DNA of 64,000 nt from Bdellovibrionales bacterium (GTDB lineage Bacteria; Bdellovibrionota; Bdellovibrionia; Bdellovibrionales; UBA1609), in contig OZ250145.1 in the NCBI GenBank assembly GCA_965237565.1, positions 955,529 through 1,019,528 on the forward strand, given 5' to 3'. A program made the position numbers and the translations under genes. Every line of letters starts with the position of its first letter. The stretch's first letter is position 1. Shown here one piece after another: positions 20,470 through 37,638 of this stretch. The notes beneath the pieces are model-generated. The model made no database searches. It was not told the origin of the DNA and saw nothing but the letters and a program-made list of their open reading frames with translations.

Positions 20470-20510
20470 CTATTGACTTATCTAGGGTCTTCTTCTTACA
20501 ATTTTTCAAG

Positions 20511-23399
20511 GTGGTTTATATGCTAGGATTGCTGATTATTTTCTGTAGGGAAGCTTTCGCTCGTTTCTTCTTGTTTCTATCTCTCAAAAACTTGTTCTCC
20601 CAATCAGGAGTGGGTCTAATTGGTGTAATGATCTCCGCCGCTGTGATGGTACCAGTGGCCTTGGTTTCAGTTCAGATTCATAAAAATATGTTGGTAGCAC
20701 AAAAGGACGTGGAGAGAAGATACTCTGTGGATCATTTGTTTCAAGATATTAGGTCTGAGCTAGGAGATACAGTGATTTGTACTCGGACCTTACGAACTTA
20801 TTTAGTAGATATGAAACTTCCAACAGAAGAAGAGGGGACTGCGGATTTGCCTTCCATAAAGACCAAGGATGGAACGGGTGATCTTCATGTGAAAGGAGGT
20901 ATTTACGAGGGCGGGAATGCAAAAATAAAGGAGATGGAAGTGTCACATCTTACGAGAGATACTTCAGGAGGCAACACAGGGACGGCAATTTTTACGGCAC
21001 ATTTTGAAAAGGGTAGCGCGGAGCAGGTAGGTTTGACAGACTTTAAACCTAGGGATTTGGAGTTAATGGTGGTTATGAACCTAGATGTAGCAGGAGAGCC
21101 GACAACTGTGAAAAGGTGCTGGGCTAAGTTTGCTGGACAAAATCTATCCTTATTAGAATCCTGCAAGGGTCGGATTGATTTTGTGAAGAACAATTGCCCT
21201 TATACCATGCCTCCTTGGTTATCATCAGCTAGTACATCGGATGAGATTGTTGAGCTTACCGGTGATAATGAGGTGATTTGGCACGAGGGTACTTGGAATG
21301 ATGGCACTTGGTGTACCTCTTCAACAAAATTGGAGCACTGTTTGTGGAAGGGAGGAACTTGGACCTCGGGGACTTGGAATAATGGTATCTGGCAAGCGGG
21401 TGAATGGTTTGGTTCTCCTGTTGATGGTGCTGATTGGAAAGCTGGTTTGTGTAAGGACAAAACACACCCCACTCCACCTCCTATCGTATGTTACGATCCA
21501 TGTGTTCCAACTGCTCCAGTCGCAACAGAAGGACATTGTGTGGTTTCAAAAGGACGTAGACACAGTGAGAAAGCTAGTGATGCTGTGACTACTTGTGAAG
21601 CTGGTTACCTAGGTAAATGTGAATCCGAATGCAATAATGGGAATTGGTTAAAAACTAGTAGATATAATGATGATGACTATTGCCATTTGCCAAGGAAATG
21701 TAGTGCAAAAACTATTAGTAGTCTTGATTGTTCACTCAAAGAGGTTGAACATGAGGGTACATCGGGAGATTGCAATGAGGGCTATGCAGGAAAATGCAAG
21801 CACAAATGCAATGATGAAACTTGGGAATATCTTCCTCTTACCAGCTATGATCCAGTTCGGATATCGTACGATGATCTTGTTAGAGGGACCTATGAAGAAT
21901 CTTACAATCACGCATGTCGTCCATTCAACACATGTTCTGGTAGCACCTTAGTAGCTGGCTCCAGAAGTTGCCATTCTGTGAATCCTTCTTCTGGTGTTAA
22001 GCATGGTGAGAAAGCCTCTGGGACATGTGGGCCTGGCTATGTGGGAGAATGTGGCTACACTTGTGTGGATGGTCGTTGGAATAGTCCTGGTTTTCATCAT
22101 ACCTGTCGCCTAGGCAAATCGTGTAGTGGAACTCGCAAGGGGGGAAGATGCAACTTAACTGTCGCTTCTCACGGAGTAACAACAAGAGGGCGTTGCGAAG
22201 ACTTCGGTAGTTGTAGATATAGGTGCCACGACGGTGAGTGGGAGCCTTCCACTGATACTTGTCGTGCAGGAAGGTCATGCAGCAATACTTCATTCAGAGA
22301 TTCTTCCTGTAAAGTGCTTGTTACTTCTCACGGTGACAAGTCAGGCACATGTGCATCAGACTACGTAGGAGAGTGCAAATTTAAATGTTTTGACTCTATC
22401 TGGAAGGATACATCCCCTGCTACCTCCAACACTTGTCGTTTGCCTAACAATTGTTTGGGAGATAAGATGATCGAGTATTGTTCGCTCGCAAGTGTTGGTA
22501 GTGGTAGAAGTTCAGGAACATGTCCATATGGTGGTGAGTGTAGCTACACCTGCAATGATGGTAGATGGACAAAATCTTTGAACACTTGCGGGGTACCGAG
22601 GACTTGTGATTCTGAGATAGTTGGTTTTTGCAATATGTATCACACCTTAGCCAAGCACGATAAAACATACCAGGGTCTTTGTACGGTCGGGTCCATCTAC
22701 GGCTATTGTGGGTATAAATGTAATGATGGCAACTGGGAAAAGGTTCGCTCTGAGTGTGGCTGTAACACTGAAACAAAGGATAACTGTAATGTGAGAATAA
22801 CTCAGCACGACACAGTCCAAGCAGGTACTTGCGCAGAGGGTTATACGGGTGAGTGTTCGTACGAGTGCAATGACGGTACTTGGCAGAGTGCTTCCACCGA
22901 TTTTTGTTCTGCCACATGTGTTGCAACAACCACAAGTGATAACTGTGAGTTGTCTGCTAGTGAGCATGGTCAGTCAGGAGGAGAATGTGCTGGTGGTTAC
23001 ACCGGTGGTTGTAGATATGAATGTGTTAATGGCACTTGGAAGAAGATGATTGTAGATAGCGAAGGAGGAGGTGGTTCATTATGTCAACCTGCTGTTTGGT
23101 GTGATGGGACTTGGGGATATAACCACTGTCAACTGCTGCCGAGGATTCATGGTAAGACATCAGGAAGATGTATACTTGGTGGTGGATGTAGCTACACGTG
23201 TGTCAATGGTACTTGGAGTAAGAATAGCAATACTTGCGTACATTGTAGTACTTATTGTCAGAGAAAAAAGAACACTTGCTGTGCGGAAAGAGTATATCGT
23301 ATGCATGGTAGTAGTACGACGAGATGTGCGCGGAACTCAGGAGCGTGTGACGGCACCTACAACAATTGTATGAACTCTTACAGGTGCTCTCCTCGGTAA
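20511..23399 (+). CDS. Cysteine-rich tandem-repeat protein with a hydrophobic pilin-like N-terminal anchor; function unknown
   Basis: 962-aa ORF. The N-terminal hydrophobic segment is 'GVGLIGVMISAAVMVPVAL'. GxW pentads are followed by about 10 tandem ~50-60-aa modules of the form C..(H)G...G.C..GY.G.C.Y.C.DG.W....C....C. Confidence 0.7.
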   Translation: MVYMLGLLIIFCREAFARFFLFLSLKNLFSQSGVGLIGVMISAAVMVPVALVSVQIHKNMLVAQKDVERRYSVDHLFQDIRSELGDTVICTRTLRTYLVDMKLPTEEEGTADLPSIKTKDGTGDLHVKGGIYEGGNAKIKEMEVSHLTRDTSGGNTGTAIFTAHFEKGSAEQVGLTDFKPRDLELMVVMNLDVAGEPTTVKRCWAKFAGQNLSLLESCKGRIDFVKNNCPYTMPPWLSSASTSDEIVELTGDNEVIWHEGTWNDGTWCTSSTKLEHCLWKGGTWTSGTWNNGIWQAGEWFGSPVDGADWKAGLCKDKTHPTPPPIVCYDPCVPTAPVATEGHCVVSKGRRHSEKASDAVTTCEAGYLGKCESECNNGNWLKTSRYNDDDYCHLPRKCSAKTISSLDCSLKEVEHEGTSGDCNEGYAGKCKHKCNDETWEYLPLTSYDPVRISYDDLVRGTYEESYNHACRPFNTCSGSTLVAGSRSCHSVNPSSGVKHGEKASGTCGPGYVGECGYTCVDGRWNSPGFHHTCRLGKSCSGTRKGGRCNLTVASHGVTTRGRCEDFGSCRYRCHDGEWEPSTDTCRAGRSCSNTSFRDSSCKVLVTSHGDKSGTCASDYVGECKFKCFDSIWKDTSPATSNTCRLPNNCLGDKMIEYCSLASVGSGRSSGTCPYGGECSYTCNDGRWTKSLNTCGVPRTCDSEIVGFCNMYHTLAKHDKTYQGLCTVGSIYGYCGYKCNDGNWEKVRSECGCNTETKDNCNVRITQHDTVQAGTCAEGYTGECSYECNDGTWQSASTDFCSATCVATTTSDNCELSASEHGQSGGECAGGYTGGCRYECVNGTWKKMIVDSEGGGGSLCQPAVWCDGTWGYNHCQLLPRIHGKTSGRCILGGGCSYTCVNGTWSKNSNTCVHCSTYCQRKKNTCCAERVYRMHGSSTTRCARNSGACDGTYNNCMNSYRCSPR

Positions 23400-23433
23400 G
23401 TATACAATTTGTTCCAGATAATAATAAAAAATC

Positions 23434-24267
23434 AGGGTCTGTTTTTACAGACAATGCAGTTATTCACTGGGGCATGAAGCAAAATAACCGTCTTTATCTT
23501 TACTGTAGTATTTAATGTATTTATATGATTGTAGAACTTCATGGCAGATCGAATTTCCTGTATTGGGAATATCAGAATCTGGATCGGGTATGCAATTATT
23601 TACCATTTGTTTAAAAAAACAATTTTGGTTCAGCAAACAAGTGCCGGTAGAGGGATCATAGATTGCATATAAAGATTCGCAAATTTTTTCATCTTCAAAC
23701 ATTACTTGGCAGGTCTCTACCACATGTGTCACGGGATTTAGGAGAAAAAGTATATCAAACTGATACAGAGGCAATTCAAAGGCTTTCGTGGGCTGAGCTT
23801 CAGGAATAATTTCTGAGAGGAGTTCGATTCTTCCAATAACCAATTTGTATTTTTGCTCCCTGAATAGATATGCTTGGACTGGTACAGAGTTTTTATGTTT
23901 CCAACTGAGGTTTTTAATTCGCCACCTACCATCAATAATGCTTCCAGTTTTAAGTATATTATCTTTTTGTAAATAGCTCCCGGTTTTGTACCCACTAATA
24001 TCAATACTTATTTCGGACTTTTTTGGAGGAACTTCTGTAGAATAGGGAAAAACTTTGCCAGAAAAATTCAATTTGCAAGATTGTTTTAGATAATAATTCA
24101 AACCAGAATAAAAATCATTAGCTTCAGCTTTAGCTAGCACATGCTCTTGAGATTGGAAATTTATTGGATACTAGTTTTCCAACTGCAAAGATCCAGATAG
24201 CAATCAAAATTGGGTCAAAAACTAAGTTCACTGATCTTGATTCAGATTTTAGCATCATCATTATTTT
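23434..24267 (-). pseudogene. Decayed paralogue of the 26702-27649 pilin-like Cys-rich gene
   Basis: Collinear with 26702-27640 but has three defects. A 95-bp deletion near the 3' end lies between 'attca' repeats and shifts the frame. A 1-nt insertion sits near the anchor-coding region. The start-codon region is lost at a junction. Confidence 0.8.
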
Positions 24268-24714
24268 CTTTATACCTATTTTAGTCGTAGGGATTGTCTC
24301 TGGATTGGAACTACCATTACTAATGAAAATCAGGAATAAAATGGAAGAAAAATTTTATGTCTTAGGATTTGATTTTGTGGGTATGTTTGTTGCATCTCTG
24401 TTATTTCCTATATCTTTTTTCACATTGGGGCTTTTTAAAACAGCAACCACTATCTCTATTATCAATCTTCTGGTTACCTATAGGCTTTCTCCCTCGAAAG
24501 AATTTGGTAAGGAAAAATTGATCGTTATATTTTTACTTCTTATCGCTATTTTTTTATGGCTATTCGACAAAAGGTATCTCCAGAAAAGCTATGGAGGGGA
24601 AAGACATCTTCCATCAATGGCACCAGATAGTAGCCCTCTAACGAAACAACAGGAAAGAGCATTAGAAGTGCCAAATAAAGAAAAAAAATAATCACCGAAG
24701 TGATTACTCTTTAT
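24260..24714 (+). pseudogene. Chimeric fragment: 3' half of the 29077-29760 membrane-protein gene fused to the 3' end of the metzincin gene
   Basis: 24260-~24565 matches 29401-~29710. ~24565-24714 matches 25882-26033. The track ORF 24164..24691 reads across both junctions. Confidence 0.8.
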
Positions 24715-24884
24715 TTTGGTTTTTGGCAAAGAATTGTAAAATTTTCTCTGCTACAACATAATTCTGATCGAACATGTGTTTTAAACTACCAGTGCACCAA
24801 GTATATGTACATTTTTAAACTGATAATCACTTTTATTGCTTTCCCCTTCTTTTTTTTCTCTTAACTTTGATATATGATATAAAA

Positions 24885-26039
24885 ATGAAAAAAATAGTAC
24901 AATATCTCCTTCATTTATCACTACTCCTTTTTGTGATGTGGTCATTAGATGTAAAAGTTCAAGCATTTGAGAGACTGAGAATCAAAGTTTTTTTAGGTGG
25001 TAGCTTGAAAGAAAAGGTCCTGCCTCTGGCCACCCCAAATCTTATCCTTGTAGGTAGTAGCCAAGGAACTGATGACACACCAACATTAGAAATTACAAAT
25101 TTAGAAAAGGATGCAAGGGTTAGCTTGTATAAAAACTCTCTTTGTTCTGGTTCTGGTGCCAATATTTTTGTAGATAGCAGTGGAAGATTTACAGTCCCCT
25201 CTGAGCTAGAGACAAGTTATGGAGGTAATTATTATTCTGCCAAACAAACAGTAAATGGAAAAAGCTCTGCTTGCTCTGAGGCCATTTATTATCTCCACTC
25301 TTCCCCGTCAATAAACGGATGGAAGCGCTGGTCCGAGGATATGCTACGTAAAGGTATCACTACTAAAATCAGTACATTTTTTGGCAAGGATCTAGAAGAC
25401 ACCCGAGATTCTCGTGGCATCAATGCTTTTGAACGAATGATGGAGGAGTGGAATAAAAACGGATTGAACGGATTGAACGGTTTTAAAGTTCCAAGCGTTA
25501 GAGTAGATAACATAGATGGACTAGTTTATGAGAATGGTGTAGTGTCAATTCATGTCAACCAACGAGATTTACCTATCTACACCCCTGATGTAATAGCCCG
25601 GGCCTTCCGTAGAATGATAGTTGAATATGAGGGTACTCCTTACGAACACGGACAGATAATCGCTGCTAGTGTTCTAGTGAACTGGAACGCACAATTAGAT
25701 TTTGTCGGCTTTACTTACGATCCTTTAGATATTCGTAACTTTGATTTACCTTCTACCATTCTTCATGAGTTAGGGCATTGCTTGGGTTTAGGGCATTCAC
25801 CTAGTGGTTCTATGTCAATAATGGAAGCATATTTTAGTAGTAATCCCGTCCTTCGAGCTCTGCGAGCTCTCACACCTTATGACAAAAGATATCTCCAGAA
25901 AAGCTATGGAGGAGAAAGACATCCCCCCCCATCAATGGCATCAGCTAACAGCCCTCTAGCGAAGCAGCAGAAAAGAGGATTACAAGCACCAAATAAAGAA
26001 AAAAAAATAATCACCGAAGTAATTACTCTTTATCGCTAG
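24885..26039 (+). CDS. Secreted metzincin-type zinc metalloprotease with an N-terminal Ig-like domain
   Basis: Signal 'MKKIVQYLLHLSLLLFVMWSLDVKVQA'. 'ILHELGHCLGLGHS' is HExxHxxGxxH, followed by 'SIMEAY' (Met-turn). 'TPTLEITNLEKDARVSLYKNSLCSG...SACSEAIYY' is a bacterial Ig-like pattern. Confidence 0.75.
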   Translation: MKKIVQYLLHLSLLLFVMWSLDVKVQAFERLRIKVFLGGSLKEKVLPLATPNLILVGSSQGTDDTPTLEITNLEKDARVSLYKNSLCSGSGANIFVDSSGRFTVPSELETSYGGNYYSAKQTVNGKSSACSEAIYYLHSSPSINGWKRWSEDMLRKGITTKISTFFGKDLEDTRDSRGINAFERMMEEWNKNGLNGLNGFKVPSVRVDNIDGLVYENGVVSIHVNQRDLPIYTPDVIARAFRRMIVEYEGTPYEHGQIIAASVLVNWNAQLDFVGFTYDPLDIRNFDLPSTILHELGHCLGLGHSPSGSMSIMEAYFSSNPVLRALRALTPYDKRYLQKSYGGERHPPPSMASANSPLAKQQKRGLQAPNKEKKIITEVITLYR

Positions 26040-26129
26040 TTCCCCACATAGCTTTTTTAGGTGGTAGCGTGAAAGAAAGGGTCCTGCCTCTGGCTACCCC
26101 AAATCTTAGCATTGTAGGTAGTAGCCATG

Positions 26130-26690
26130 GATGGGATTTATGCTTTTATGGATGCCCATCTGGGAGTGGATCCTGCTAAGGGAATCTTACTTAAAAGGTA
26201 TATTGGTGGGGAGTTGTATTGAAGCAGGTCATTGCCGAGTATATTGTGTTTCCAATATTCCCTTGGATTGGGCTAATATGGTTTTGCCTCAATGGGGAGG
26301 TTATTATCAGAAACCATTTGAAGTAGAGATTTATTGTCTTACCCTTACCCAAAATCCAATTATTTTTTATTCGTATATCACTTCTTTCTAGAGTAAATAT
26401 TTTTCTTTCTCAAATAAAAATTATGCACTGGCTTTGTTCTCTGCTGTAGGTAAAACGTTTTGGAATATGTTATATCACACATTTTATTTTTCTATTTTTG
26501 TACCAAAAGATTTTTTCTTTTTTCGATCTATATGAAACTGATCATTTTTTTAAATTTGCTGAATTATATCTATTCATTGGTGCAATGCAAGCATTCATTC
26601 TTACGGAGTTTTCGATACGGGCAGGAAACTATCTCAAAGAAAGGACCATCTTGCGCTATAAATGTTGATAGACTGTAGAGCTTATTTTTA
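26130..26690 (+). pseudogene. Decayed copy of the 3' half of the acyltransferase-like gene 27871-28968
   Basis: Matches 28300-28975, with an internal deletion (~40 codons) and frameshifts. Track ORFs 26131..26391 and 26460..26678 are its pieces. It is preceded (26052-26130) by a copy of metzincin nt 24988-25066. Confidence 0.8.
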
Positions 26691-26701
26691 TTAAAGTAGC
26701 A

Positions 26702-27649
26702 TTAGGGTCTGCTTTTACAGACAATGCAATTATTCATCTTTAGTCTTACTGAGTAGGTGTTTGTACAATTTTCTCCACAACTTTGCTTTTTTGATCCATA
26801 TAATGTAGTGGAAAAAAGCACAGTTGAATCACTGGGGCATGAAGCAAAATAACCATCTTTATCTTTACTGTTGTATTCAATGTATTTATGTGACTGCAAA
26901 ACCTCGTGGCAGATCGAATTTCCTGTATTGGGAATATCAGAATCTGGATCGGGTATGCAGTTATTAGCCCTGCTTTTAGAAAAACAATTTTGGTTCAATA
27001 AACAAGTACTGGTAGAGGGATCATAGATTGCATGTAAAGATTCGCAAATTTTTTCATCTTCAAACATTACTTGGCAGGTCTCTACCACATGTGTCACAGG
27101 ATTTAGGAGAAAAAGTATATCAAACTGATACAGAGGCAATTCAAAGGCTTCTGCGGGCTGAGCTTCAGGAATAATTTCTGATAAAAGTTCGATTCTTCCA
27201 ATAACCAATTTGTATTTTTGCTCCTTGAATAGATATGCTTGGACTGGTACAGAGTTTTTATGTTTCCAACTAAGCTTTTTAATTCGCCACCTACCATCAA
27301 TAATGCTTCCTGTCTTGAGTATATTATCTTTTTGCAAATAGCTTCCAGTTTTGTACCCATTAATATCAATACTTAGCTCAGAATCCTCAGGAGAGGCTTC
27401 TGTAGAATAGGGAAAAGGTTTGCCAGAAAAATTCAAATCGCAAGATTGTTTTAGATAATAGTCTAAGCCAGAATAAAAATCATTGGCTTCAGCTCTGGCC
27501 AGCACATGGTCTTGAGATTGAAAACTATTGGATACTAATGTTCCAACTGCCAAGATCCAGATAGCAATCAAAATTAGACCAAAAACTAGGCTCACTGAGC
27601 TTGATTCAGGCTTTAATATCATCATTATTTTTGTGTAAAAATTTTTCAT
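26702..27649 (-). CDS. Cys-rich exported protein with a pilin-like N-terminal hydrophobic anchor; function unknown
   Basis: 'MKNFYTKIMMILKPESSSVSLVFGLILIAIWILAVGTLV' is followed by a soluble domain with about 12 Cys. This is the intact paralogue of 23434-24267. The track ORF begins at GTG 27661. Confidence 0.6.
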   Translation of the reverse strand: MKNFYTKIMMILKPESSSVSLVFGLILIAIWILAVGTLVSNSFQSQDHVLARAEANDFYSGLDYYLKQSCDLNFSGKPFPYSTEASPEDSELSIDINGYKTGSYLQKDNILKTGSIIDGRWRIKKLSWKHKNSVPVQAYLFKEQKYKLVIGRIELLSEIIPEAQPAEAFELPLYQFDILFLLNPVTHVVETCQVMFEDEKICESLHAIYDPSTSTCLLNQNCFSKSRANNCIPDPDSDIPNTGNSICHEVLQSHKYIEYNSKDKDGYFASCPSDSTVLFSTTLYGSKKQSCGENCTNTYSVRLKMNNCIVCKSRP

Positions 27650-27870
27650 TCTGGTACCCACATTTAAAAGACCAAAAACTCCGCATGATCGACAAATGGG
27701 ATGCTAACAAATTGGATTGCAATGCACAATCAATATATCACAATATGCATCAAACATCTTTTTCAACAAATAAGTTTTCATTCTGGATTCGAAAAGATAA
27801 TATTGAAGAAAAATTTTCTATTCTAAGAGTTAATTGTAAACTCATGAAGTGAATAGCTGGTTTATTTCTC

Positions 27871-28968: not shown

Positions 28969-29076
28969 CGGACTTTAAGGCTTGTTCTTATTGACCAAAT
29001 AAAGTAGTGTCGTGGGTGAATAATATTAAAAAAATGCCTAGGATCATACTTTTTCTTTTGAAAGGAAAAAAAATCA

Positions 29077-29760
29077 ATGAAACAGATAGAAAATAAAAAA
29101 GAGTTCATGTTCATTACTTTTCTTCTAGCTTTTTGTAGCTTATTTTATGAACTCATTTTTTCTCAATTGATATCTATCTTTATTGGAAGTGTTATTTTCA
29201 GTTATAGTTTGGGAATTGGAGTTTTTATCCTAGGCTTGGGTTTGGGAGCTTTTTTGTGTGATAGGTTAACGGATAAGTCAAAGTATATTGAGCAACTTTT
29301 TTATATTGAGATAGCCTTAGCTATTTACGCACTTATTGGGCTGTATGTGGGGATTATTTTGGCACAAGTGACAACATTTTATCCTACAACACTTAGATAC
29401 ATTATTTTCTTTATACCCATTTTAGCTGTGGGAATTGTCTCTGGGCTGGAATTACCATTACTAATGAAAATAAGAAATAAGATTGAAGAAAAATTTTATG
29501 TCTTGGGATTTGATTTTGTAGGCATGTTTGTTGCATCTTTACTATTTCCTATATTTTTTTTCACATTGGGACTTTTTAAAGCAGCTACCACTATCGCTAT
29601 TATCAATCTTCTAGCTGCCTATAGGCTTGCTCCTTTTAAAAAATTTGGTAAAGAAAAATTGATCGTTATATTTTTGCTCCTTATTGCTACTCTTTTATGG
29701 TTGTTTGATTCTCATTTGATTCCTTTACGAGAATACCTATTTTTAGGAACGAGGGCGTGA
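29077..29760 (+). CDS. Membrane-only homologue of the N-terminal domain of the downstream fused membrane/spermidine-synthase-like proteins
   Basis: 'FCSLFYELIFSQLISIFIGSVIFSYSLGIGVFILGLGLGAF' parallels 'FCSMSYQLLMARALAETTGHHILSYSASFGFFLLGMGIGG' of the paralogues. Its stop overlaps the GTG start of the next gene (gcGTGA). Confidence 0.65.
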   Translation: MKQIENKKEFMFITFLLAFCSLFYELIFSQLISIFIGSVIFSYSLGIGVFILGLGLGAFLCDRLTDKSKYIEQLFYIEIALAIYALIGLYVGIILAQVTTFYPTTLRYIIFFIPILAVGIVSGLELPLLMKIRNKIEEKFYVLGFDFVGMFVASLLFPIFFFTLGLFKAATTIAIINLLAAYRLAPFKKFGKEKLIVIFLLLIATLLWLFDSHLIPLREYLFLGTRA

Positions 29761-31427
29761 TTTTTCTAAGAGTATTATTCTTAGCATTTTGTAGTATGAG
29801 CTACCAACTCTTAATGGCCAGAGCTTTAGCCGAAACAACAGGTCATCATATACTTAGTTATAGTGCCTCTTTTGGTTTCTTTTTGCTTGGGATGGGAATT
29901 GGTGGAATTTATTATACCAAATCCTTGATTCGAAAATCTCCACTCAAGGTCTTTTTTTATACGGAAATTTTATTAGCTCTTTTAGGTGGTTTGGCTGTTG
30001 TTTTTATCTTTTTTTCACATACTTTGCTAAATCTTTGGTTTTTTTCAGACATGAATAACTTCTTTTCAGAACGGATAAAGGATTTTCTCTTTATCTTTTT
30101 TTCACAAATTTTTCTTTTTCTTGTTGGCTTTCTTTCCGGCTTTGAGCTTCCCATTTGGTTGAAATTAGCAGAAGCAAGAAAAAATTCCCAAGGAATTTTA
30201 AACAAGACTGGAGCTTTATTGGCAGCTAGCTACATGGGAGGTTTTGCTGGAAGCTTGTTACTTACACTTTTGATTGCGCCGATTTTTGGACTCATCAGTT
30301 CTTGTATATTAATTGGTTTTATAAATGTAATTGTTTTGATTGAGACTTTTGTTTCTTATAAAAATCTTTCTTTAAAAAAAAGTTTTGCTATTTTGGCATC
30401 TATATTTGTTATTTATACAGGTGGGTTTTGGCAAAAAGAGATTTTGCAAATTAATTTAAAATCTTCTTATTTACAAGTGGGTTTGTCGGAATTTAGTTTT
30501 AATGCGGCAAAAGATTTTTTTTCTTTATCTCATCATTATGGAGAAGTTTTAAGAATCCGTACTCCTTATCAAAATGTTGATATTTTGCTTTCCAATTTTT
30601 TAAAAAATCCCGTTCATAATTCTTTTACATTCAGTGGATCTGGAATTGTTCTTTTTCTGAATAGATTTACACAGTTTGAAGAAAAATTTTGGTTAATCTA
30701 TCATGAAATGCTTGCGATTGGAGGGGTACTTTTGGCGGATAAAGAACCTAAAAATGTCTTAGTTTTAGGTGGAGGGGATGGGCTACTCATCTCACAGATG
30801 TTAAAGCTTTATAAGGGGATTAAAAAAATCACCCAAGTTGATATTGATTCCGCCTTAATTAAAGTAGGAAGGTATTATAGGCCCATAAATGTCGTGAACC
30901 AAGAAGCTTTGTCGAGTCATAAATTAACTACTATTATAGGTGATGCCTTTGAGTATGTGAGCAAATCCAAAAGCACCTATGATGCTATTTTTATAGATAT
31001 ACCTTTTCCATATACCTTTGATTTGTCTAGGCTCTATAGCTTTGAATTTTATAAAAATCTTAGCCATCTTTTAGAAGAAGATGGTTTTGTTGTAACAGAT
31101 TCTCCTACCAAAGAGTGTTTGAAAACATCTTTATTTGTTGAGAAAATACTTCAGCTGTCTGATTCTCCAATGAATATTCTTTATAACACCCTAACTTATG
31201 CTGGTTACAAAACAGTTATTCCTTATGGTACAACAGAACCATGCATGCTATTTTTTCAAAAAATAAAACGAGATAAGGTTAATTTTAGTAAAGAAGAGAT
31301 TGAGAAATATCCGCTATCTAAGATAGGAAAAAGAAATTTAGTTATAAATAAAGATGTAAAAAAAGATGTTAAAATTAAGAAAAAGTATATTAATTCTGTT
31401 TTTAAACCTACGCTATTCAGATATTAG
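29757..31427 (+). CDS. Fused polytopic membrane / spermidine-synthase-like protein, paralogue 1
   Basis: About 7-8 TM segments, then 'VLVLGGGDGLLISQML...ITQVDIDSALI...IIGDAFEYV...YDAIFIDIPFPYTFDLSRLYSFEFY' (SpeE-fold motifs). Confidence 0.75.
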   Translation: MIFLRVLFLAFCSMSYQLLMARALAETTGHHILSYSASFGFFLLGMGIGGIYYTKSLIRKSPLKVFFYTEILLALLGGLAVVFIFFSHTLLNLWFFSDMNNFFSERIKDFLFIFFSQIFLFLVGFLSGFELPIWLKLAEARKNSQGILNKTGALLAASYMGGFAGSLLLTLLIAPIFGLISSCILIGFINVIVLIETFVSYKNLSLKKSFAILASIFVIYTGGFWQKEILQINLKSSYLQVGLSEFSFNAAKDFFSLSHHYGEVLRIRTPYQNVDILLSNFLKNPVHNSFTFSGSGIVLFLNRFTQFEEKFWLIYHEMLAIGGVLLADKEPKNVLVLGGGDGLLISQMLKLYKGIKKITQVDIDSALIKVGRYYRPINVVNQEALSSHKLTTIIGDAFEYVSKSKSTYDAIFIDIPFPYTFDLSRLYSFEFYKNLSHLLEEDGFVVTDSPTKECLKTSLFVEKILQLSDSPMNILYNTLTYAGYKTVIPYGTTEPCMLFFQKIKRDKVNFSKEEIEKYPLSKIGKRNLVINKDVKKDVKIKKKYINSVFKPTLFRY

Positions 31428-31453
31428 ATTAAACTTATTTTTGGGAATTGCCG

Positions 31454-33178
31454 GTGATTTTTGTAAGAATTTTCATTTTGTCTTTTTGTAGTATGAGTTA
31501 TCAACTTCTGATGGCTAGATCTTTAGCTGAAATAACACAACATCATATATTTGGTTATAGTATTTCCTTTGGCTTCTTTTTGCTTGGGATGGGAATTGGT
31601 GGAATTTATTATGCCAAATCTTTGATTCAAAAATCTCCACTCAAGGTCTTTTTTTCTACTGAAATTTTCTTAGCTCTTTTAGGTGGTTTAGCTGTTTTTT
31701 TTATCTTTTTTTCACATACTTTGCTAAATCTATTGGTTTTTTCAGACATGAATAACTTCTTTTCTGGAAATGCAAAAGATTTTATCTTTATCTTTTTTTC
31801 ACAAAGTTTTCTTTTTCTTATTGGCTTTTTTTCCGGCTTTGAGCTTCCCATTTGGTTGAAATTAGCAGAAGCAAGAAAAAATTCCCAAGGAATTTTAAAC
31901 AAAACTGGAGCTTTATTGGCAGCTAGCTACATGGGAGGTTTTGCTGGAAGTTTGTTACTTACACTTTTGATTGCACCAATTTTTGGACTCATCAGCTCTT
32001 GTATATTGATTGGGTTTATAAATGTAATTATTTTGATTGAGACTTTTGTTTCTTATAAAAATCTTTCTTTAAAAAAAAGTTTTGCCATTTTGGTATCTAT
32101 ATTTTTCCTTTATATGGGAAATTATTGGCAAAAAGAGATTTTGCAAATGAATTTGAAATCTTATTATTTGCGGGTGGGTTTGTCGGAGTTTAGTTTTAAG
32201 GCAGCAAAAGATTTTTTTTCTTTGTTGGATGATTATAATGAAATTTTAAGAGTTCGGACTACTTATCAAAATGTAGACATTATACTTTTCAATTTTTTAA
32301 GAAATTCCTCTCAACGGAATTTTCCATTTAGAGATCGTACTCTCCATCTTTTTCTGAATAGGTTTCATCAATTTGAATTTTCCCTAGACAAATTCAATCG
32401 AGAAAGCTGGGTACGAGAAAACTGGGTACGAGAAAGCTGGGTAGATTATTATGATACTTCATTGGTTGGAGGAGCTATTTTAGCAGGTGGAGAACCTAAA
32501 AATATTTTGATTGTAGGGGCAGGAGGACATAGTTTAGGGCTCCCACGAGTTCTAAAATTTTATAAGGGAGTTAGAAAAATTACATTATTGGATATTGATC
32601 CCTTCATGATCAAAATAGGAAGATCCTATAAACCCATAAGTAGTTTGAACCCAAAAGACCTTCTGAAGCATAAACTGAATATTATCATAGATGATGCTTT
32701 TGACTACGTGAGCAAAACCATGGATACTTATGATGCTGTGTTTATACAATTCCCCTCTCCATACACTTTTGATTTATCTAGGCTTTATAGCTTTGAATTT
32801 TATAAAAATCTCAGTCATCTTCTAGAGGAAGATGGTTTTATTTTGATGGATGCTCGTTCGATTGAGTGTGGGAAGGCAGCTTTATTTAATGAAGAAGGAT
32901 TTCAGTTTTCTGGTTCTCCGGTTAATATTTTGTATAGCACACTAACTTATGCTGGTTACAACACAATTATCATTTACGGTAGGACAAGGTCGTGTCTTTT
33001 ATTTGCTCAAAAAATAAAGCGAGATGAAATTAGTTTTAAGAAAAAAGCAATGAAAAAATATCCCTTATCTAAGAGAAGAGAAAAAGAGTTGGTTATAAAT
33101 AAAGATATAAAAAAAAGTATTGAAATCAAGCGAAAGTATATCAACTCCGTTTTCAAGCCCACATTCTTCAGATACTAA
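31454..33178 (+). CDS. Fused membrane / spermidine-synthase-like protein, paralogue 2 (degenerate cofactor motif)
   Basis: Same architecture, but GGGDG is replaced by 'GAGGHSLG' and 'FIDIP' by 'FIQFP'. It carries a 'RESWVRENWVRESWV' insertion. I prefer GTG 31454 (MIFVRIF..., matching its siblings) over TTG 31448. Confidence 0.7.
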   Translation: MIFVRIFILSFCSMSYQLLMARSLAEITQHHIFGYSISFGFFLLGMGIGGIYYAKSLIQKSPLKVFFSTEIFLALLGGLAVFFIFFSHTLLNLLVFSDMNNFFSGNAKDFIFIFFSQSFLFLIGFFSGFELPIWLKLAEARKNSQGILNKTGALLAASYMGGFAGSLLLTLLIAPIFGLISSCILIGFINVIILIETFVSYKNLSLKKSFAILVSIFFLYMGNYWQKEILQMNLKSYYLRVGLSEFSFKAAKDFFSLLDDYNEILRVRTTYQNVDIILFNFLRNSSQRNFPFRDRTLHLFLNRFHQFEFSLDKFNRESWVRENWVRESWVDYYDTSLVGGAILAGGEPKNILIVGAGGHSLGLPRVLKFYKGVRKITLLDIDPFMIKIGRSYKPISSLNPKDLLKHKLNIIIDDAFDYVSKTMDTYDAVFIQFPSPYTFDLSRLYSFEFYKNLSHLLEEDGFILMDARSIECGKAALFNEEGFQFSGSPVNILYSTLTYAGYNTIIIYGRTRSCLLFAQKIKRDEISFKKKAMKKYPLSKRREKELVINKDIKKSIEIKRKYINSVFKPTFFRY

Positions 33179-33204
33179 GTGAAATTGATTGTTGAGAATT
33201 ACTA

Positions 33205-34875
33205 ATGATTTTTATAAGAATTTTCATTTTGTCTTTTTGTAGTATGAGTTATCAACTCCTGATGGCCAGATCTTTGGCCGAAACAACAAGCTATTATATA
33301 TTTAGCTATAGCGTATCCTTTGGCTTCTTTTTGCTTGGGATGGGAATTGGTGGAATTTATTATGCCAAATCTTTGATTCAAAAATCTCCACTCAAGGTCT
33401 TTTTTTATATTGAAATTTTCTTAGCTCTTTTAGGTGGTTTAGCTGTTTTTTTTATCTTTTTTTCACATACTTTTCTGAATTTATTGTTTTTTTCAGACAT
33501 GAATAACTTCTTTTCTGGAATTGCAAGAGATTTTCTCTTTATACTGGTTTCACAAATTTTTCTTTTTCTTGTTGGCTTTTTTTCTGGTTTTGAACTTCCT
33601 ATTTGGTTAAAATTGGCAGAAATAAAAAAAGATTCTAAAGCAATATTATACAAAACTGGAGCTTTACTGGGAGCTAGCTACATGGGAGGTTTTGCTGGAA
33701 GCTTGTTAATCACACTTTTGATTGTGCCAATTTTTGGTCTACTCAATGCCTGTGTACTGATTGGTTTGATAAACTTAATAGTTTTGATTGAGACTTTTGT
33801 TTCTTATAAAAGTCTTTCTTTAAAAAAAAGTTTTGCTATTTTGGCATCTATATTCTTGCTTTACGCAGGGAATTTTTGGCAAAAAGAGATTTTGCAAATG
33901 AATTTAAAATCTTCTTATTTAGAATTAGGTTTGTCGGAATTTAGCTTTAAAGCAGCGAAAGATTTTTTGTCCTTATCTCATGATTATGAGGAAATTTTAA
34001 GAGTCCGTACTCCTTACCAAAATATTGATATTATGCCCTCCAACTTTTTAAAAAATTCCAAGCGATTAGGATTTTCATTTAGTGAATATGGAATCGTTCT
34101 TTTTTTGAATAGATTTTGGCAGTTCCATCAAGCATTTTGGGTATCCAACCATGAAGCTCAGGTGGTTGGAGGAACTCTTTTGGCGGGTAAAGAACCTAAA
34201 AATATTTTAATTTTGGGTGGAGGGGATGGATTGATGATCTCACAGATGTTAAAGTTTTATAAGGGAATCAAAAAAATTACACAAATCGATATTGATTCTG
34301 TCTTAATTAAGGTAGGAAGATATTATAGGCCCATAAGTGCCGTGAGCAAGGAAGCTCTTTTGAGCAATAAATTAACTACTATTATAGGTGATGGGTTTGA
34401 ATATGTGAGCAAATCCAAAAGCACTTATGATGCTGTTTTTATAGATGTACCCATGCCATATACTTTTGATTTGTCTAGACTTTATAGTTTTGAATTTTAT
34501 AAAAATCTTGGTCATATTTTAGAAGAAGATGGATTTGTTGTGATGGATTCTCCTTTGAAAGGATGTCAGAAAATATTTTTATTCGGTGGAACAATGTTTG
34601 AACTAGCTGGTTCTCCAGCTAATATTTTGTATAGCACTTTAACTTATGCAGGTTACAAAACAATTATTGCTTATGGAATGAATTATACATGTATACTATT
34701 TTTTCAAAAAATAAAACGAGATAAAATTGAGTTTACTAAAACAGAAATTGAAAAATATTCTTTATCCAAAGGAGGGAAAAGAGAGTTGCTTATACATAAA
34801 GATGTAGAAAAGAATATTAAAATTAAACAAAAATACATCAATTCTGTTTTTAAGCCTACGCTATTCAGATACTAG
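33205..34875 (+). CDS. Fused membrane / spermidine-synthase-like protein, paralogue 3
   Basis: 'ILILGGGDGLMISQML', 'ITQIDIDSVLI', 'YDAVFIDVPMPYTFDLSRLYSFEFY'. Confidence 0.75.
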   Translation: MIFIRIFILSFCSMSYQLLMARSLAETTSYYIFSYSVSFGFFLLGMGIGGIYYAKSLIQKSPLKVFFYIEIFLALLGGLAVFFIFFSHTFLNLLFFSDMNNFFSGIARDFLFILVSQIFLFLVGFFSGFELPIWLKLAEIKKDSKAILYKTGALLGASYMGGFAGSLLITLLIVPIFGLLNACVLIGLINLIVLIETFVSYKSLSLKKSFAILASIFLLYAGNFWQKEILQMNLKSSYLELGLSEFSFKAAKDFLSLSHDYEEILRVRTPYQNIDIMPSNFLKNSKRLGFSFSEYGIVLFLNRFWQFHQAFWVSNHEAQVVGGTLLAGKEPKNILILGGGDGLMISQMLKFYKGIKKITQIDIDSVLIKVGRYYRPISAVSKEALLSNKLTTIIGDGFEYVSKSKSTYDAVFIDVPMPYTFDLSRLYSFEFYKNLGHILEEDGFVVMDSPLKGCQKIFLFGGTMFELAGSPANILYSTLTYAGYKTIIAYGMNYTCILFFQKIKRDKIEFTKTEIEKYSLSKGGKRELLIHKDVEKNIKIKQKYINSVFKPTLFRY

Positions 34876-34901
34876 CTCAAATTGATTCTTAGGGAGGACC
34901 A

Positions 34902-36569
34902 ATGATTTTTGTAAGAATTTTCATTCTGTCTTTTTGCAGTATGAGCTATCAATTTTTGATGGCTAGATCTTTAGCTGAGACAACAGGTCACTATATACTT
35001 AGTTACAGTGTCTCATTTGGTTTTTTTTTATTGGGGATGGGAATTGGTGGAATTTATTATGCCAAATCCCTGATTCGAGAGCCTCCACTCAAGGTCTTTT
35101 TTTATATTGAAATTTTGTTGGCTCTTCTAGGTGGTCTGGCTGTTTTTTTTATCTTTTTTTCACATACTTTGTTAAATCTTTGGTTTTTTTCGGATATAAA
35201 TAACTTATTTTCAGGGCAGGTAAAAGATTTTATTTTTATCTTTTTTTCACAAATTATTCTTTTTTTTGTTGGTTTCCTTTCTGGATTTGAACTTCCTATC
35301 TGGTTAAGATTGACAAAAATGAAAAAAAATATCAATGGGGCTTTGTATGAAACTGGAGCTTTATTGGCAGCTAGCTGCATGGGAGGTTTTGTTGGAAGCT
35401 TGTTAATTACCCTTTTAATTGTGCCAATTTTTGGTCTGATTCATTCTTGCATACTGATTGGTTTTATAAACCTAATTATTTTGATGGAATCTTTTGGTTT
35501 TTATAAAAATCTTTCCTTAAAAAAAAGTTTTGCTATTTTAGTATCTATATTTATACTTTACACAGGGAATTTTTGGCAAAAAGAGATTTTGCAAATTAAT
35601 TTAAAATCTTCTTATTTGCGAGTGGGTTTGTCGGAATTTAGTTTTAAAGCAGCGAGAGATTTTTTTTCTTTGTTGGATAATTACAATCAAGTATTAAGAG
35701 TTCGGACTTCTTATCAAAATGGCGATATTATGCTTTCAAATTTTTTAAGAAATTTTGCTCAATCGAGTTTTCCATTTCATAATCATGGAGTCACTCTTTT
35801 CCTGAATAGATTTTGGCAATTTGATCAAGTATTTTGGCTATCCTACCATGAAGCTGAAGCAGTTGGAGGGGCTCTTTTGGCAGGAAAAGAGCCCAAAAAT
35901 ATCTTAATTTTAGGTGGAGGAGAAGGGTTGTTAATTTCACAGATTCTAAAATTTTATAAAGGAATCAAAAAAATTACACAAGTGGAGATTGATCCTATTA
36001 TGATGAAAGTAGGAAGATACTATAAACCTGTCAGTACTGTGAGCCAAGGAGCTCTTTTAAATCACAAATTGAATACTATTCTAGGGGATGGTTTTGAATA
36101 TGTAAGCAAAGCCAAAAGCACCTATGATGCTATTTTTGTTGATGTTCCTTTTCCATATACTTTTGATTTGTCTAGACTCTATAGCCTTGAATTTTATAAA
36201 AATCTTAGCCATCTTTTAAAAGAAGATGCTTTTGTTGTCATAGATTCTCCTTTAAAGGAATGCGAGAGAGAAATTTTTGGGGAAGAGGCAACTCAATTAG
36301 CTGGTTCTCCAGCTAATATTTTATATAGTACCTTAACTTATGCTGGTTACAAAACAATTATTGCTTATGGAATGAATGATACATGTATATTATTTTTTCA
36401 AAAAATAAAGCGAGATGAAGTTAGTTTTAGAGAAGAAGAGCTAAAAAAATATCCCATATCTAAAGAAACAAGAAAGATGCTCACCATAAACAAAGAGATA
36501 GAAAAAAATATTAAAATTAAACGAAAATATATCAATTCTGTTTTTAAACCTACGCTATTCAGGTACTGA
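34902..36569 (+). CDS. Fused membrane / spermidine-synthase-like protein, paralogue 4
   Basis: 'ILILGGGEGLLISQIL', 'ITQVEIDPIMM', 'YDAIFVDVPFPYTFDLSRLYSLEFY'. Confidence 0.75.
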   Translation: MIFVRIFILSFCSMSYQFLMARSLAETTGHYILSYSVSFGFFLLGMGIGGIYYAKSLIREPPLKVFFYIEILLALLGGLAVFFIFFSHTLLNLWFFSDINNLFSGQVKDFIFIFFSQIILFFVGFLSGFELPIWLRLTKMKKNINGALYETGALLAASCMGGFVGSLLITLLIVPIFGLIHSCILIGFINLIILMESFGFYKNLSLKKSFAILVSIFILYTGNFWQKEILQINLKSSYLRVGLSEFSFKAARDFFSLLDNYNQVLRVRTSYQNGDIMLSNFLRNFAQSSFPFHNHGVTLFLNRFWQFDQVFWLSYHEAEAVGGALLAGKEPKNILILGGGEGLLISQILKFYKGIKKITQVEIDPIMMKVGRYYKPVSTVSQGALLNHKLNTILGDGFEYVSKAKSTYDAIFVDVPFPYTFDLSRLYSLEFYKNLSHLLKEDAFVVIDSPLKECEREIFGEEATQLAGSPANILYSTLTYAGYKTIIAYGMNDTCILFFQKIKRDEVSFREEELKKYPISKETRKMLTINKEIEKNIKIKRKYINSVFKPTLFRY

Positions 36570-36579
36570 AAATCTTTTT

Positions 36580-37638
36580 CTAGGCAGCAAGGGGTTTTTT
36601 CAATTTTTTGGCAATTGATGAGGTAAGATATTCCGTCCATTTGTTGATTTCATCTAAATGAGCGGAATCAACCACTGCATCTGCTATGCCCAAAAAAGCT
36701 CCCGTCATTTTTTTTTCTTCGTTCAATACGGGAATAAGGGTCGCATGACTGGGTAATTTTTCAAATCCCCAAGATTGAAAAAATTTTAGATGCTTTTCAT
36801 TTTTTATAACGTAGCCATGGTAGGATTGCTTGCTAGAGCAGATCAGCCTAAACATGGAGGCTTCCTTGGTCTCAATAGGTGTAGTGGGACCATCTAAGTT
36901 TTTACTCCACTTAATCGGGATAAATTTTTGGTTTTGAAAAGCAAATACAATGGCTCCTGAAAAATATTTTTTCGATAATTCAAAAACCTCAGTATAATTT
37001 GCTGTTTCTTTTTTCTCACCCTTCTTGTTGGTGAAAATAGCATGAAAAATAAACTGAGTAATCTTGCTTATTGCAGAAGGACTTTCTTCTTCGTTATACG
37101 CTTTTTTCGCTACACTTGAATCGGCAGGTGGTCGAACTTTACTGGGCTGTGCCTTCTCACTGGCTACTTCTTTGCTTTTATTGCTTGCTGGATCCAATAC
37201 GGTGGTGATTTTCTGCCAGAACATTTCCAAATATTTTGGCTCAGTCAAAATGGGAACGACGTGATCATTTTTTTTATTTACCGGAGGTTCTACGCAACCA
37301 GCAAATACAATGTTGTCCCATTTATAAATGGGAAGAAAAGATTCGCTCCAATTTTCTTGATCTTTCACTTCATTCCATAGTTCTTGGTTGATGATCATGT
37401 TGTCAAAAAAATTCCCGTCTAGACTGGGAATTCCATAGTGATTTCTTGCCCATTCAAAATATGGTTCAGAAGGCAGGTTTTTTTCTTTCAGAGCCCAAAA
37501 AGTAAGATCTTGATCTTTGCAAAGTTTTTGCCAATTGGAATAATCGATTTCTGCAACATTTAGGGCCTTTTGCCACTTTTTCATGTCTTTCATACTAAGA
37601 ACCATTGGAGTTTTTTGCTCTTTTTTTACACTTTCCAT
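36580..37638 (-). CDS. Hypothetical protein with a T2SS-E-N-terminal-like domain and a GAF-like C-terminal half
   Basis: 'YFEWARNHYGIPSLDGNFF...ELWNEV...FLPIYKWDNIVFAGCVEPP' fits the GspE/PilB N-domain pattern (...lP.....n.l.va..eP). The C-terminal domain assignment is weak. Confidence 0.45.
   Translation of the reverse strand: MESVKKEQKTPMVLSMKDMKKWQKALNVAEIDYSNWQKLCKDQDLTFWALKEKNLPSEPYFEWARNHYGIPSLDGNFFDNMIINQELWNEVKDQENWSESFLPIYKWDNIVFAGCVEPPVNKKNDHVVPILTEPKYLEMFWQKITTVLDPASNKSKEVASEKAQPSKVRPPADSSVAKKAYNEEESPSAISKITQFIFHAIFTNKKGEKKETANYTEVFELSKKYFSGAIVFAFQNQKFIPIKWSKNLDGPTTPIETKEASMFRLICSSKQSYHGYVIKNEKHLKFFQSWGFEKLPSHATLIPVLNEEKKMTGAFLGIADAVVDSAHLDEINKWTEYLTSSIAKKLKKPLAA

Follow-up and report, generated by a model that had tools for sequence, protein, structure and literature searches.

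The 64-kb stretch of a Bdellovibrionales genome analysed here (contig OZ250145.1; called the window below, with its numbering used throughout) carries at 20511-36569 a block of genes that we read as one copy of a Bdellovibrionota cassette in which pilin-like proteins are paired with membrane enzymes. The copy has apparently been acquired horizontally, amplified and partly eroded, and its putative role is to modify the pilin-like proteins or another acceptor in the envelope, a reading in which our belief and our doubt weigh about the same. Judged from its genes, the cassette would be a pilin locus whose dedicated, putative modification enzymes of the membrane centre on a non-canonical membrane aminopropyltransferase. 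A first-pass annotation had placed the block between two housekeeping clusters and proposed that it forms a single functional module. Its position was correctly described: the genes for TilS, FtsH, GlmM, Nnr and TsaE lie on the left, and an Aminotran_5 (IscS/NifS-like) gene, MnmA, a MiaB-like radical-SAM gene, RNase III, Der and purine genes lie on the right. As for the module, that annotation was right for the core and wrong for a metzincin and for a gene with a GspE-N-like domain, and the copy in the window is amplified, rearranged, partly eroded and devoid of one component, X, of the related cassettes. The core genes, and the giant pilin-like protein encoded to their left, are the following.

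26702-27661, minus strand: CysPil, a Cys-rich pilin-like protein of 319 aa with a hydrophobic anchor at its N-terminus; the gene diverges from the enzyme operon, as it does in the related cassettes
27871-28968, plus strand: acylT, an acyltransferase-like protein of the HGSNAT_cat/DUF1624 type (PF07786) with multiple transmembrane (TM) segments, 365 aa
29077-29760, plus strand: TM227, a stand-alone multi-TM protein of 227 aa, paralogous by alignment to the TM domain with which the SpeE-like proteins begin
29757-31427, plus strand: SpeE1, a TM domain plus an aminopropyltransferase-fold domain
31448-33178, plus strand: SpeE2, same architecture
33205-34875, plus strand: SpeE3, same architecture
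34902-36569, plus strand: SpeE4, same architecture
20511-23399, plus strand: giant modular pilin-like protein of 962 aa with 77 Cys

The recurrence of the core in other genomes is what carries this reading. A genome scan with the alignment of the SpeE paralogues yielded three Bdellovibrionota loci, and a protein search with the SpeE-like sequences yielded 46 relatives, the window's own four included. Seven neighbourhoods came from these relatives, six of them with DNA (L005-L009 and L013) and one, the P0019 locus, as a gene table only, and the loci were compared by BLAST and hidden Markov model (HMM) search. A metagenome scan with the SpeE alignment added one distant and uninformative locus (L004). 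Loci L001, L003, L005 and L008 share one order: a second Cys-rich pilin-like gene and the CysPil orthologue, both on the minus strand, diverge from a rightward series of X, a TM protein of about 220 aa, a SpeE-like protein of about 550 aa and acylT. Identity to the window is 48-52% for the SpeE-like proteins and 45-48% for acylT in these four loci, and X is a small periplasmic protein (258-278 aa, one TM segment) whose family matched nothing in Pfam, NCBIfam or the PDB apart from low-complexity noise. L006 and L007, with SpeE-like proteins at 42%, carry an RND pump, TM227, a SpeE-like gene, two small open reading frames (ORFs), a DUF418 membrane protein and a second SpeE-like gene, together with a protein like the C-terminal part of CysPil and large pilin-like proteins, one of which, of 840 aa, contains 'RGISLVELLIV'. 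Even in L002, where the SpeE-like protein is down to 31%, a homologue of the N-terminal domain of the giant protein is followed by X' (clearly homologous to X), the TM protein and the SpeE-like protein.

The genes around the cassette change from place to place: EF-G and a GHMP kinase in L003, an RND pump and ATP synthase in L006 and L007, TsaE and IscS in the window. L005 and L008 share topoisomerase VI downstream and differ upstream (ComEC and FtsW versus RadA and SSB). In total, the core is present in at least six other Bdellovibrionota genomes and at least five distinct contexts, and HMM searches find the TM227/SpeE pair kept across phyla, with the TM partner in all related loci. Because the core recurs while the surrounding genes differ, the co-localisation of its families is not fortuitous. 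The co-occurrence and synteny check that the first-pass annotation had proposed thus supports its single module for CysPil, TM227, the SpeE-like proteins and acylT, and does not support it for the metzincin, the Sushi-like modules of the giant protein and the 352-aa gene with the GspE-N-like domain. The function that it suggested, in which disulfide-rich surface proteins would be displayed, modified and processed together with a set of polyamine- or S-adenosylmethionine-dependent membrane enzymes, is plausible for these core families.

It could be argued instead that unrelated envelope genes have piled up by chance at a hotspot and have no common function. This would suit the metzincin, the Sushi-like modules and the GspE-N-like gene, which have no counterpart in the related cassettes (no homologue of the metzincin, of the module, of TsaE, of IscS or of the 352-aa protein was found in the compared cassette loci, so that the modules occur in the window only, and for the metzincin the loci covered were L001-L008). 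It would also suit the left 3.3 kb, which is a mosaic of fragments, and a gene order that deviates in the window, where X is missing and acylT lies upstream of the SpeE-like genes and not downstream as in the other genomes. Against it stand the five-family core in those other genomes and contexts, the pair that is conserved across phyla and the purifying selection on the intact genes. For the core, the idea is largely refuted by synteny, and we consider it very unlikely overall.

Two observations on the related loci can be added here. Genes for topoisomerase VI A/B (TP6A_N, Topo-VIb_trans), an enzyme that is uncommon in bacteria, lie a few kb downstream of the cassette in Bdellovibrionales metagenome-assembled genomes, at L005:14656-17719, L008:13683-16518 and L001:6196-7368. 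In the L006/L007 cluster, an 810-aa protein (L007:12472-14904, minus strand) has a weak aminopropyltransferase/methyltransferase-like segment in residues 308-411 (PRK00811, E = 2e-5) and would be the third SpeE-like protein of that cluster.

At the centre of the cassette is an enzyme that resembles spermidine synthase and departs from it in a specific way. As had been noticed from the sequence, the 227-aa TM protein is followed by four tandem SpeE-like ORFs of 555-576 aa each (29757-36569, plus strand), which are 71-76% identical to one another and in which about seven hydrophobic segments in residues 1-225 precede the catalytic-fold domain. The two copies scanned match Pfam Spermine_synth (PF01564; SpeE1 94.9 bits and SpeE2 64.6 bits, cut-off 22.9), and a profile of the family matches the Thermus thermophilus SpeE structures 1UIR/3ANX at E ~1e-24. 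Compared with 1UIR, the family retains the segment 'Q...YHE', the GGG(D/E)G motif, the 'xID' that binds ribose, 'GD' and, within the acceptor motif, the first Asp. The cofactor motif is GGGDG in SpeE1 and SpeE3, GGGEG in SpeE4 and GAGGHS in SpeE2. The second Asp of the DxxDP acceptor site, the acid to which the distal amine of the diamine (putrescine) binds, is lost in all four: it is F, M and F in SpeE1, SpeE3 and SpeE4, and SpeE2 reads QFPSP. In the alignment with T. thermophilus SpeE, 'DFPFP' stands opposite 'DLTDP'. Over SpeE1/3/4, 'DLTDP' of 1UIR and 'DLPDP' of the canonical membrane forms become 'D-[IVF]-P-[FM]-P', and DFP[FYTVMS]P is a motif of the subfamily, seen in relatives P0001-P0023 and a few others.

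These residues guide what the enzymes are predicted to do. The acid in GxG(D/E)G selects decarboxylated S-adenosylmethionine (dcSAM) over S-adenosylmethionine (SAM) (criterion in PMC10349129), and since SpeE1, SpeE3 and SpeE4 retain it, they are predicted to use dcSAM rather than SAM. An ordinary spermidine synthase was considered and rejected, given the lost distal Asp, the four membrane-bound copies and a score below equivalog level (217.8 and 186.2 bits for NCBIfam PRK03612, NF002956, whose cut-off is 472 bits). SpeE2, in which both the GxGxG acid (GAGGHS) and the catalytic Asp (QFPSP) are gone, is predicted to be catalytically inactive for that reason; it also carries a repeat-like internal insertion of 17-20 aa, 'ESWVRENWVRESW', and may be a retained pseudo-enzyme or a regulatory subunit. 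TM227 matches only the N-terminal TM part of PRK03612 (positions 20-220). Its gene shares 4 nt with SpeE1, and gaps of 20-26 nt separate the SpeE genes, which fits a single operon of TM227 and SpeE1-4.

Distant relatives tie the pair to the presumed cofactor. At the P0019 locus, a gene with an AdoMet_dc domain stands immediately upstream. The L009 locus, from a Dehalococcoidales metagenome-assembled genome, has the order TM227-like, AdoMet_dc, TM-SpeE-like, with a second TM-SpeE-like gene on the minus strand. In L013 (GCA_054015375.1, JBPMFB010000004.1), one gene at 8769-9956, directly upstream of a 7TM-SpeE-like gene, fuses AdoMet_dc (residues 63-140, E = 1.4e-16) to a TM227-like region (residues 158-383, HMM E = 3e-37). 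No other observation speaks as strongly as this fusion for cooperation of the TM partner with the SpeE-like protein and for their use of dcSAM. Upstream in L013 lie the genes of a 1177-aa secreted protein with 34 Cys and of a multi-TM protein of 366 aa. The latter was tried as an acylT homologue and rejected, the hhalign probability being 0.3% with only a 21-residue N-terminal motif aligned.

The third membrane component, acylT, had been called an acyltransferase-like membrane protein, and this stands as an HGSNAT_cat-type assignment with a marginal match (PF07786, 23.8 bits against a cut-off of 22, model positions 1-197 of 222). Its resemblance to the HGSNAT/DUF1624 acetyltransferases consists in this marginal score above the cut-off, its multi-TM nature and its conservation in the cassette; the L008 orthologue also carries PF07786. 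Hydropathy gives 11 hydrophobic windows, which overlap in part and probably correspond to 7-9 TM helices, and no match to acylT was found among PDB sequences.

The other side of the cassette is made up of the pilin-like proteins. That CysPil is a Cys-rich protein with a hydrophobic N-terminal anchor is confirmed; the pilin-like character that had been proposed for the anchor shows in the prepilin motifs of its orthologues, those of the window being degenerate. Its 12 Cys are invariant across orthologues from four Bdellovibrionales loci. The orthologues in L001, L003, L005 and L008 have a canonical class III signal, G/(F or V)-x-x-x-E5 (the slash separates positions -1 and +1), for example G/F-S-L-V-E, and then a hydrophobic helix; two instances are 'KSG/FSLVELLVSAGLLGF' and 'QYG/FSIMEVLVVSGLLGF'. 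Pfam N_methyl (PF07963) reaches 17.4 bits in the orthologues, below its cut-off of 21.2, and the Pfam scan gave no N_methyl match in the window's own pilin-like proteins. The best matches of the CysPil family profile in the PDB are pilin N-termini (geopilin at E = 0.14, and also MshA). A homologue search with the CysPil alignment returned 3 proteins only, the low-complexity tails having probably swamped the word index.

The giant protein had been described as a six-Cys-module protein, and so it is: its 962 aa comprise an N-terminal domain, a W-rich stretch, a Pro-rich linker and, at nt 21537-23387, 10 good modules plus 1 degenerate one, of 50-64 aa and six Cys each, with the consensus C-x5-C-x8-C-x6-HG-x2-SG-x-C-x2-GY-x-G-x-C-x-Y-x-C-x-DG-x-W-x8-C. 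Near its N-terminus, 'SQSG/VGLIGVMISAAVM' (aa ~30-57) forms a class-III-like leader with a hydrophobic helix, of the same type as in the L001 and L008 orthologues apart from Gly for Glu5. At the CysPil position of the L002 locus sits a pilin-like protein of 439 aa to which its first ~200 residues show homology (tblastn to 20598-21134, E = 2e-15). The whole protein has no Pfam or NCBIfam match, and its N-terminal domain gave only noise against the PDB. The start is uncertain: with the annotated GTG the leader is 33 residues long and in part hydrophobic, an unusual form for a class III signal, and alternative in-frame TTG starts lie at 20571 (13-aa leader) and 20592 (6-aa leader). A promoter-like site, TTGACT-18-TACAAT, is present at 20473-20502, upstream of the gene; promoter and terminator scans as a whole were not enriched over shuffled sequence and were not used.

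One module was modelled with AlphaFold2 (AF2) on an alignment of the other modules, and the predicted local distance difference test (pLDDT) score was 82. The PDB fold matches of the model are ectodomains of class-B G-protein-coupled receptors (GIPR, CRFR), HormR and factor H/complement control protein (CCP) domains, with a best TMq of 0.60-0.66 and a listed range of 0.45-0.66. Membership of the Sushi/CCP family (PF00084) was rejected, as there is no Pfam match, each module has six Cys and not four, and the likeness of fold is suggestive at most. On the strength of the model, we call it only a Sushi/HormR-like three-disulfide module. Pseudopilins without Glu5, such as GspK, sit at the tip of the filament. 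By this analogy, the missing Glu5 of the giant protein would fit a tip position for a large, adhesin-bearing subunit.

Taken together, these components allow a mechanism to be proposed. The complex of TM227 and the SpeE-like protein would take an aminopropyl-type group from dcSAM and pass it to something other than a free diamine. This acceptor would most likely be the pilin-like proteins encoded next to it, modified at their N-terminus or on a side chain, or else another amine of the membrane or envelope. The acyltransferase would act across the membrane to add a second modification. Once modified, the Cys-rich proteins might be displayed as adhesins on a structure like a type IV filament, where the 962-aa protein, having no Glu5, could be a modular pilin at the tip that bears the 10-11 Sushi/HormR-like three-disulfide modules.

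We favour the pilin-like proteins as the acceptor because their adjacency to the enzymes persists down to 31% identity, and because membrane enzymes encoded next to pilins usually modify pilins, as in the case of TfpO, TfpW and PglI. In Pseudomonas aeruginosa, tfpO/pilO and tfpW adjoin pilA, and PglI of Neisseria is an O-acetyltransferase of the pilin glycan. The parallel with these systems is that membrane enzymes, possibly with an acyltransferase among them, are encoded beside pilin genes, and there they act on the pilin or its glycan. The enzyme families are different (O-oligosaccharyltransferase, GT-C), and the block in the window has no glycosyltransferase. To our knowledge, no aminopropyltransferase-fold enzyme has been known in a pilin-modification locus.

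A further argument for a pilin acceptor is that the only characterised enzyme with a 7TM plus SpeE-like architecture modifies the N-termini of secreted proteins. This is the fungal N-terminal histidine methyltransferase (NHMT, AN4663), in which a 7TM domain of ~215 aa precedes a SpeE-like domain in a protein of ~558 aa, and which modifies the N-terminus of secreted lytic polysaccharide monooxygenases (PMC10349129). It is annotated as a spermidine synthase but is not one; Ile replaces the acid of GxG(D/E)G, and the enzyme uses SAM (PMC10349129). Its 7TM domain is restricted to Pezizomycotina (PMC10349129), and the likeness to the proteins in the window is one of architecture. Moreover, SpeE1, SpeE3 and SpeE4 keep D/E where NHMT does not, and only SpeE2 lacks the acid, having lost the catalytic Asp as well.

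It is tempting to go further and to speculate that the 7TM-SpeE-like proteins and TM227 aminopropylate the pilin-like proteins with dcSAM, either at the mature N-terminal amine, in place of or besides the N-methylation by PilD, or at Lys, that the HGSNAT-like protein acylates the new amine, and that the paralogues serve different pilins. If this were true, pilin aminopropylation would be a previously unknown post-translational modification and a bacterial counterpart of fungal NHMT. In such detail, the proposal strikes us as improbable.

Several points weigh against a pilin-modifying cassette. What links the enzymes to the pilin-like proteins is conserved adjacency alone, and in L009 and L013, the two distant loci with DNA, the enzyme pair is not beside pilin-like genes, its neighbours being other large secreted proteins. 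Neither SAM decarboxylase nor prepilin peptidase nor type IV filament machinery is encoded in the 64-kb window, and X was not found in it by tblastn. The prepilin motif is degenerate in both CysPil copies of the window, which share S at -1 and F at +5 (the helix of CysPil is retained), and the giant protein has G at -1 but Gly in place of Glu5 at +5, its hydrophobic helix being present. The fold matches of the module all have E > 0.1 (E >= 0.17 for those named), owing to the small size of the domain, and the score of acylT is marginal. The topology of the SpeE-like proteins raises a further difficulty. By the positive-inside rule, seven TM segments with K/R-rich loops 2-3, 4-5 and 6-7 would leave the catalytic domain on the periplasmic side, and dcSAM is not expected to occur there; the hydrophobicity of TM7, however, is weak, and the topology is ambiguous. 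A catalytic domain outside the cytoplasm would be what is expected for NHMT, whose substrate N-termini arise in the lumen of the endoplasmic reticulum.

The main rival to a pilin acceptor is a membrane lipid or polyamine acceptor. Here, the TM227/7TM-SpeE-like complex and the acyltransferase would make, export or anchor an unusual polyamine, or aminopropylate the amine of a lipid head group, and the pilin genes would be neighbours by regulation or history and not substrates. For the lipid version, MprF, in which a synthase is coupled to a flippase, offers a likeness. A SpeE-fold catalytic domain with dcSAM-type motifs suits this explanation, as do the SAM decarboxylase that adjoins or is fused to the pair in distant relatives without pilin genes, the resemblance of the membrane-integral enzyme and its homologous TM partner to the NCBIfam 'fused MFS/spermidine synthase' type (weak matches only) and the co-encoded membrane acyltransferase. 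However, the operon is always divergent from or beside Cys-rich pilin-like genes in Bdellovibrionota, at 31-52% identity and in contexts that are otherwise different; the loss of the distal diamine-binding Asp makes ordinary spermidine synthesis unlikely; and four diverged paralogues are better explained by a range of specificities for proteins or acceptors than by one metabolite. On balance we regard a lipid or polyamine acceptor as doubtful, while leaving it a substantial minority of our belief.

The nearest bacterial relatives of the enzyme, the PRK03612-type membrane polyamine aminopropyltransferases (NF002956), share with it a multi-TM N-terminus plus SpeE domain, a similar length, GGGDG, the ribose-binding acid and the first catalytic Asp. 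They differ in that the enzymes in the window score far under 472 bits, have DFP[F/Y/M/S]P for 'DLPDP', and always come with a separate paralogous TM protein inside a pilin/acyltransferase cassette. No paper naming PRK03612 was found in the literature searched. Modular pilins with grafted adhesive modules are documented, for example Streptococcus sanguinis PilB and PilC (PMC8179133). The 962-aa protein resembles them in joining an N-terminal pilin-like segment to grafted, probably adhesive, modules, and differs in that its modules are 10-11 tandem six-Cys Sushi/HormR-like units, not vWA or lectin domains, and in having Gly for Glu5.

All components come from known superfamilies, and what is new is that Cys-rich pilin-like proteins are combined with a transmembrane acyltransferase and with a split enzyme of the 7TM/aminopropyltransferase-fold type whose acceptor site is altered. 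We know of no described system with such a combination, and no description of the cassette was found in the literature searched (membrane spermidine synthase, PRK03612, Bdellovibrio Cys-rich pilins). If the enzymes act on the pilin-like proteins, aminopropylation would join the chemistries of pilin modification, and a bacterial branch of the membrane 'spermidine synthases', proteins whose annotation is routinely wrong, would have its first function. If lipids or polyamines are the acceptor, an unrecognised modification of envelope charge in predatory or epibiotic Bdellovibrionota would come to light. In either case, the cassette is a small, testable gene set, and the SAM-decarboxylase fusion gives a biochemical handle (dcSAM).

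In the window, the GC content at third codon positions (GC3) is 0.37-0.48 in the neighbouring housekeeping genes but 0.31 in both acylT and the metzincin gene and 0.24 in the SpeE array, and in the lower-GC relatives the GC of the cassette is about that of the flanks of the same locus. The low GC3 in the window, together with the matched GC in these relatives, suggests that the cassette was acquired from a lower-GC relative. No hallmark of a mobile element was detected at the ends of the block (no tRNA, integrase, Rfam element or flanking direct repeat). Among the SpeE paralogues, the ratio of nonsynonymous to synonymous substitution rates (dN/dS) is 0.22-0.34 at dS 0.25-0.85 for all pairs, with SpeE2 against the others at ~0.26-0.34. 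From these ratios, the four copies are read as lineage-specific duplicates maintained by purifying selection, SpeE2 included. In addition, the 5' TM-coding parts of SpeE1-3 (29757-33900) have a lower dS than the catalytic parts (0.25 versus 0.80 for SpeE1 and SpeE2), a difference that suggests gene conversion among these tandem copies.

One could also suppose that the block is a decaying, largely non-functional island, a horizontally acquired cassette that is now being lost. The pseudogene fragments fit this, and so do the S at -1 and F at +5 of both CysPil copies in place of G and E, the SpeE2 protein without both key acidic residues, the absence of X from the window and a composition atypical for the source genome. 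But the four SpeE-like ORFs, TM227, acylT, CysPil, the metzincin gene and the 962-aa ORF are all uninterrupted, and the dN/dS values at those dS levels amount to long-term purifying selection after the duplication, SpeE2 included. We therefore give little credence to decay of the block as a whole, and prefer a cassette that is amplified and eroded in part.

On the left side, about 3.3 kb of the block is pseudogene debris, around one gene that looks intact.

23431-24267, minus strand: pseudogene copy of CysPil, 90% identical in nucleotides to the 319-aa gene in a blastn self-comparison; includes the 226-aa ORF at 23460-24140 (minus strand)
24259-24714, plus strand: chimeric remnant in which the 3' part of TM227 is joined to the 3' end of the metzincin gene; appears in the ORF list as 175 aa at 24164-24691 (plus strand)
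24867-26039, plus strand: matrixin-like (M10-type) metzincin of 390 aa with a signal peptide, apparently intact
26047-26692, plus strand: remnants in which a 5' fragment of the metzincin gene is joined to acyltransferase fragments

The left part had been taken for a recombination patchwork, and self-comparison with three-frame translation identifies it as a recombination mosaic. Because the self-comparison shows fragment copies of block genes there, the 226-aa and 175-aa ORFs are remnants and not genes. In the CysPil pseudogene, a frameshift near 24140 severs the N-terminal anchor and ~85 nt are deleted near the 3' end (three-frame translation). The chimeric remnant combines a copy of the TM227 3' part (24259-24567, 87%) with a copy of the metzincin 3' end (24566-24714, 86%), and the remnants further right combine the metzincin 5' end (26047-26131, 91%) with acyltransferase pieces (26128-26287, 90%, and 26283-26692, 78%). 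Such junctions are consistent with an older tandem duplication of a unit of CysPil, acylT, TM227 and metzincin, followed by deletions. An assembly artefact or collapse was rejected as the cause because the copies are just 78-91% identical.

The metzincin was rightly called secreted: it has a signal peptide, and its zinc site HELGHCLGLGH (HExxHxxGxxH), Met-turn 'SIMEAYF' and 'Q.YGGE' tail align to the catalytic domain of MMP-14. Pfam Peptidase_M10 (PF00413) scores 27.4 bits against a cut-off of 24 and covers model positions 103-159 only, the C-terminal half. With no homologue in the related cassettes, the metzincin is a local passenger, at most a lineage-specific accessory.

At the right edge, the convergent gene that the first-pass annotation had counted as a member of the block belongs to the housekeeping flank.

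36580-37638, minus strand: cytoplasmic two-domain protein of 352 aa, convergent with the SpeE array and outside the block, in a divergent pair with the Aminotran_5 gene at 37754-38941 (plus strand)

Its orthologues in L011 and L012 are likewise divergently paired with Aminotran_5, with no cassette nearby, so the pairing is seen in three genomes, and for this reason the block ends at 36569. The protein has no TM segment or signal peptide and no match in Pfam (E <= 1), NCBIfam or PDB sequences. The statement that almost every product is exported or membrane-embedded is corrected for this protein and for several products on the left, which are pseudogene fragments. An ordinary homologue search with the 352-aa protein found only itself and an exhaustive one found 758 relatives at E <= 1e-3; 36 members of the family contained no Pfam family at E <= 0.01. 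An AF2 model based on 36 homologues (pLDDT 84.6) has two domains with a disordered linker between them. The top 50 Foldseek matches listed for the full model are almost all GAF domains, which match the C-terminal domain. The N-terminal profile has as its best PDB match the N-terminal domain of PilB (7LKO/7LKM, E = 0.08, 105 positions, the whole domain), a weak match with no PF05157 hit, so the GspE/PilB-N-like domain that had been proposed is plausible but weak, and the C-terminal half is GAF-like.

Elsewhere in the window, a 1762-aa ORF at 58662-63950 (plus strand), with a lipoprotein- or signal-like N-terminus, 21 Cys and no Pfam match at E <= 0.001, is probably a surface protein, and it is preceded at 57207-58361 by a 384-aa signal-peptide protein without a Pfam match. 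Remnants of mobile or restriction-modification type occupy 78-6225: a 650-aa N6_N4_Mtase protein, an ORF6N protein (2389-3306) and a 153-aa DNA-methylase fragment (5683-6144). These are adjoined by tRNA-Ala(GGC) at 6150-6225, and GC falls to ~0.30 at 2-5 kb. At 6772-8905 (minus strand), and unrelated to the block, a Polysacc_deac_1 gene and a glucosaminidase-domain gene lie side by side; such a deacetylase and glucosaminidase pair is of the peptidoglycan-modifying kind that predatory Bdellovibrio uses on the walls of its prey.

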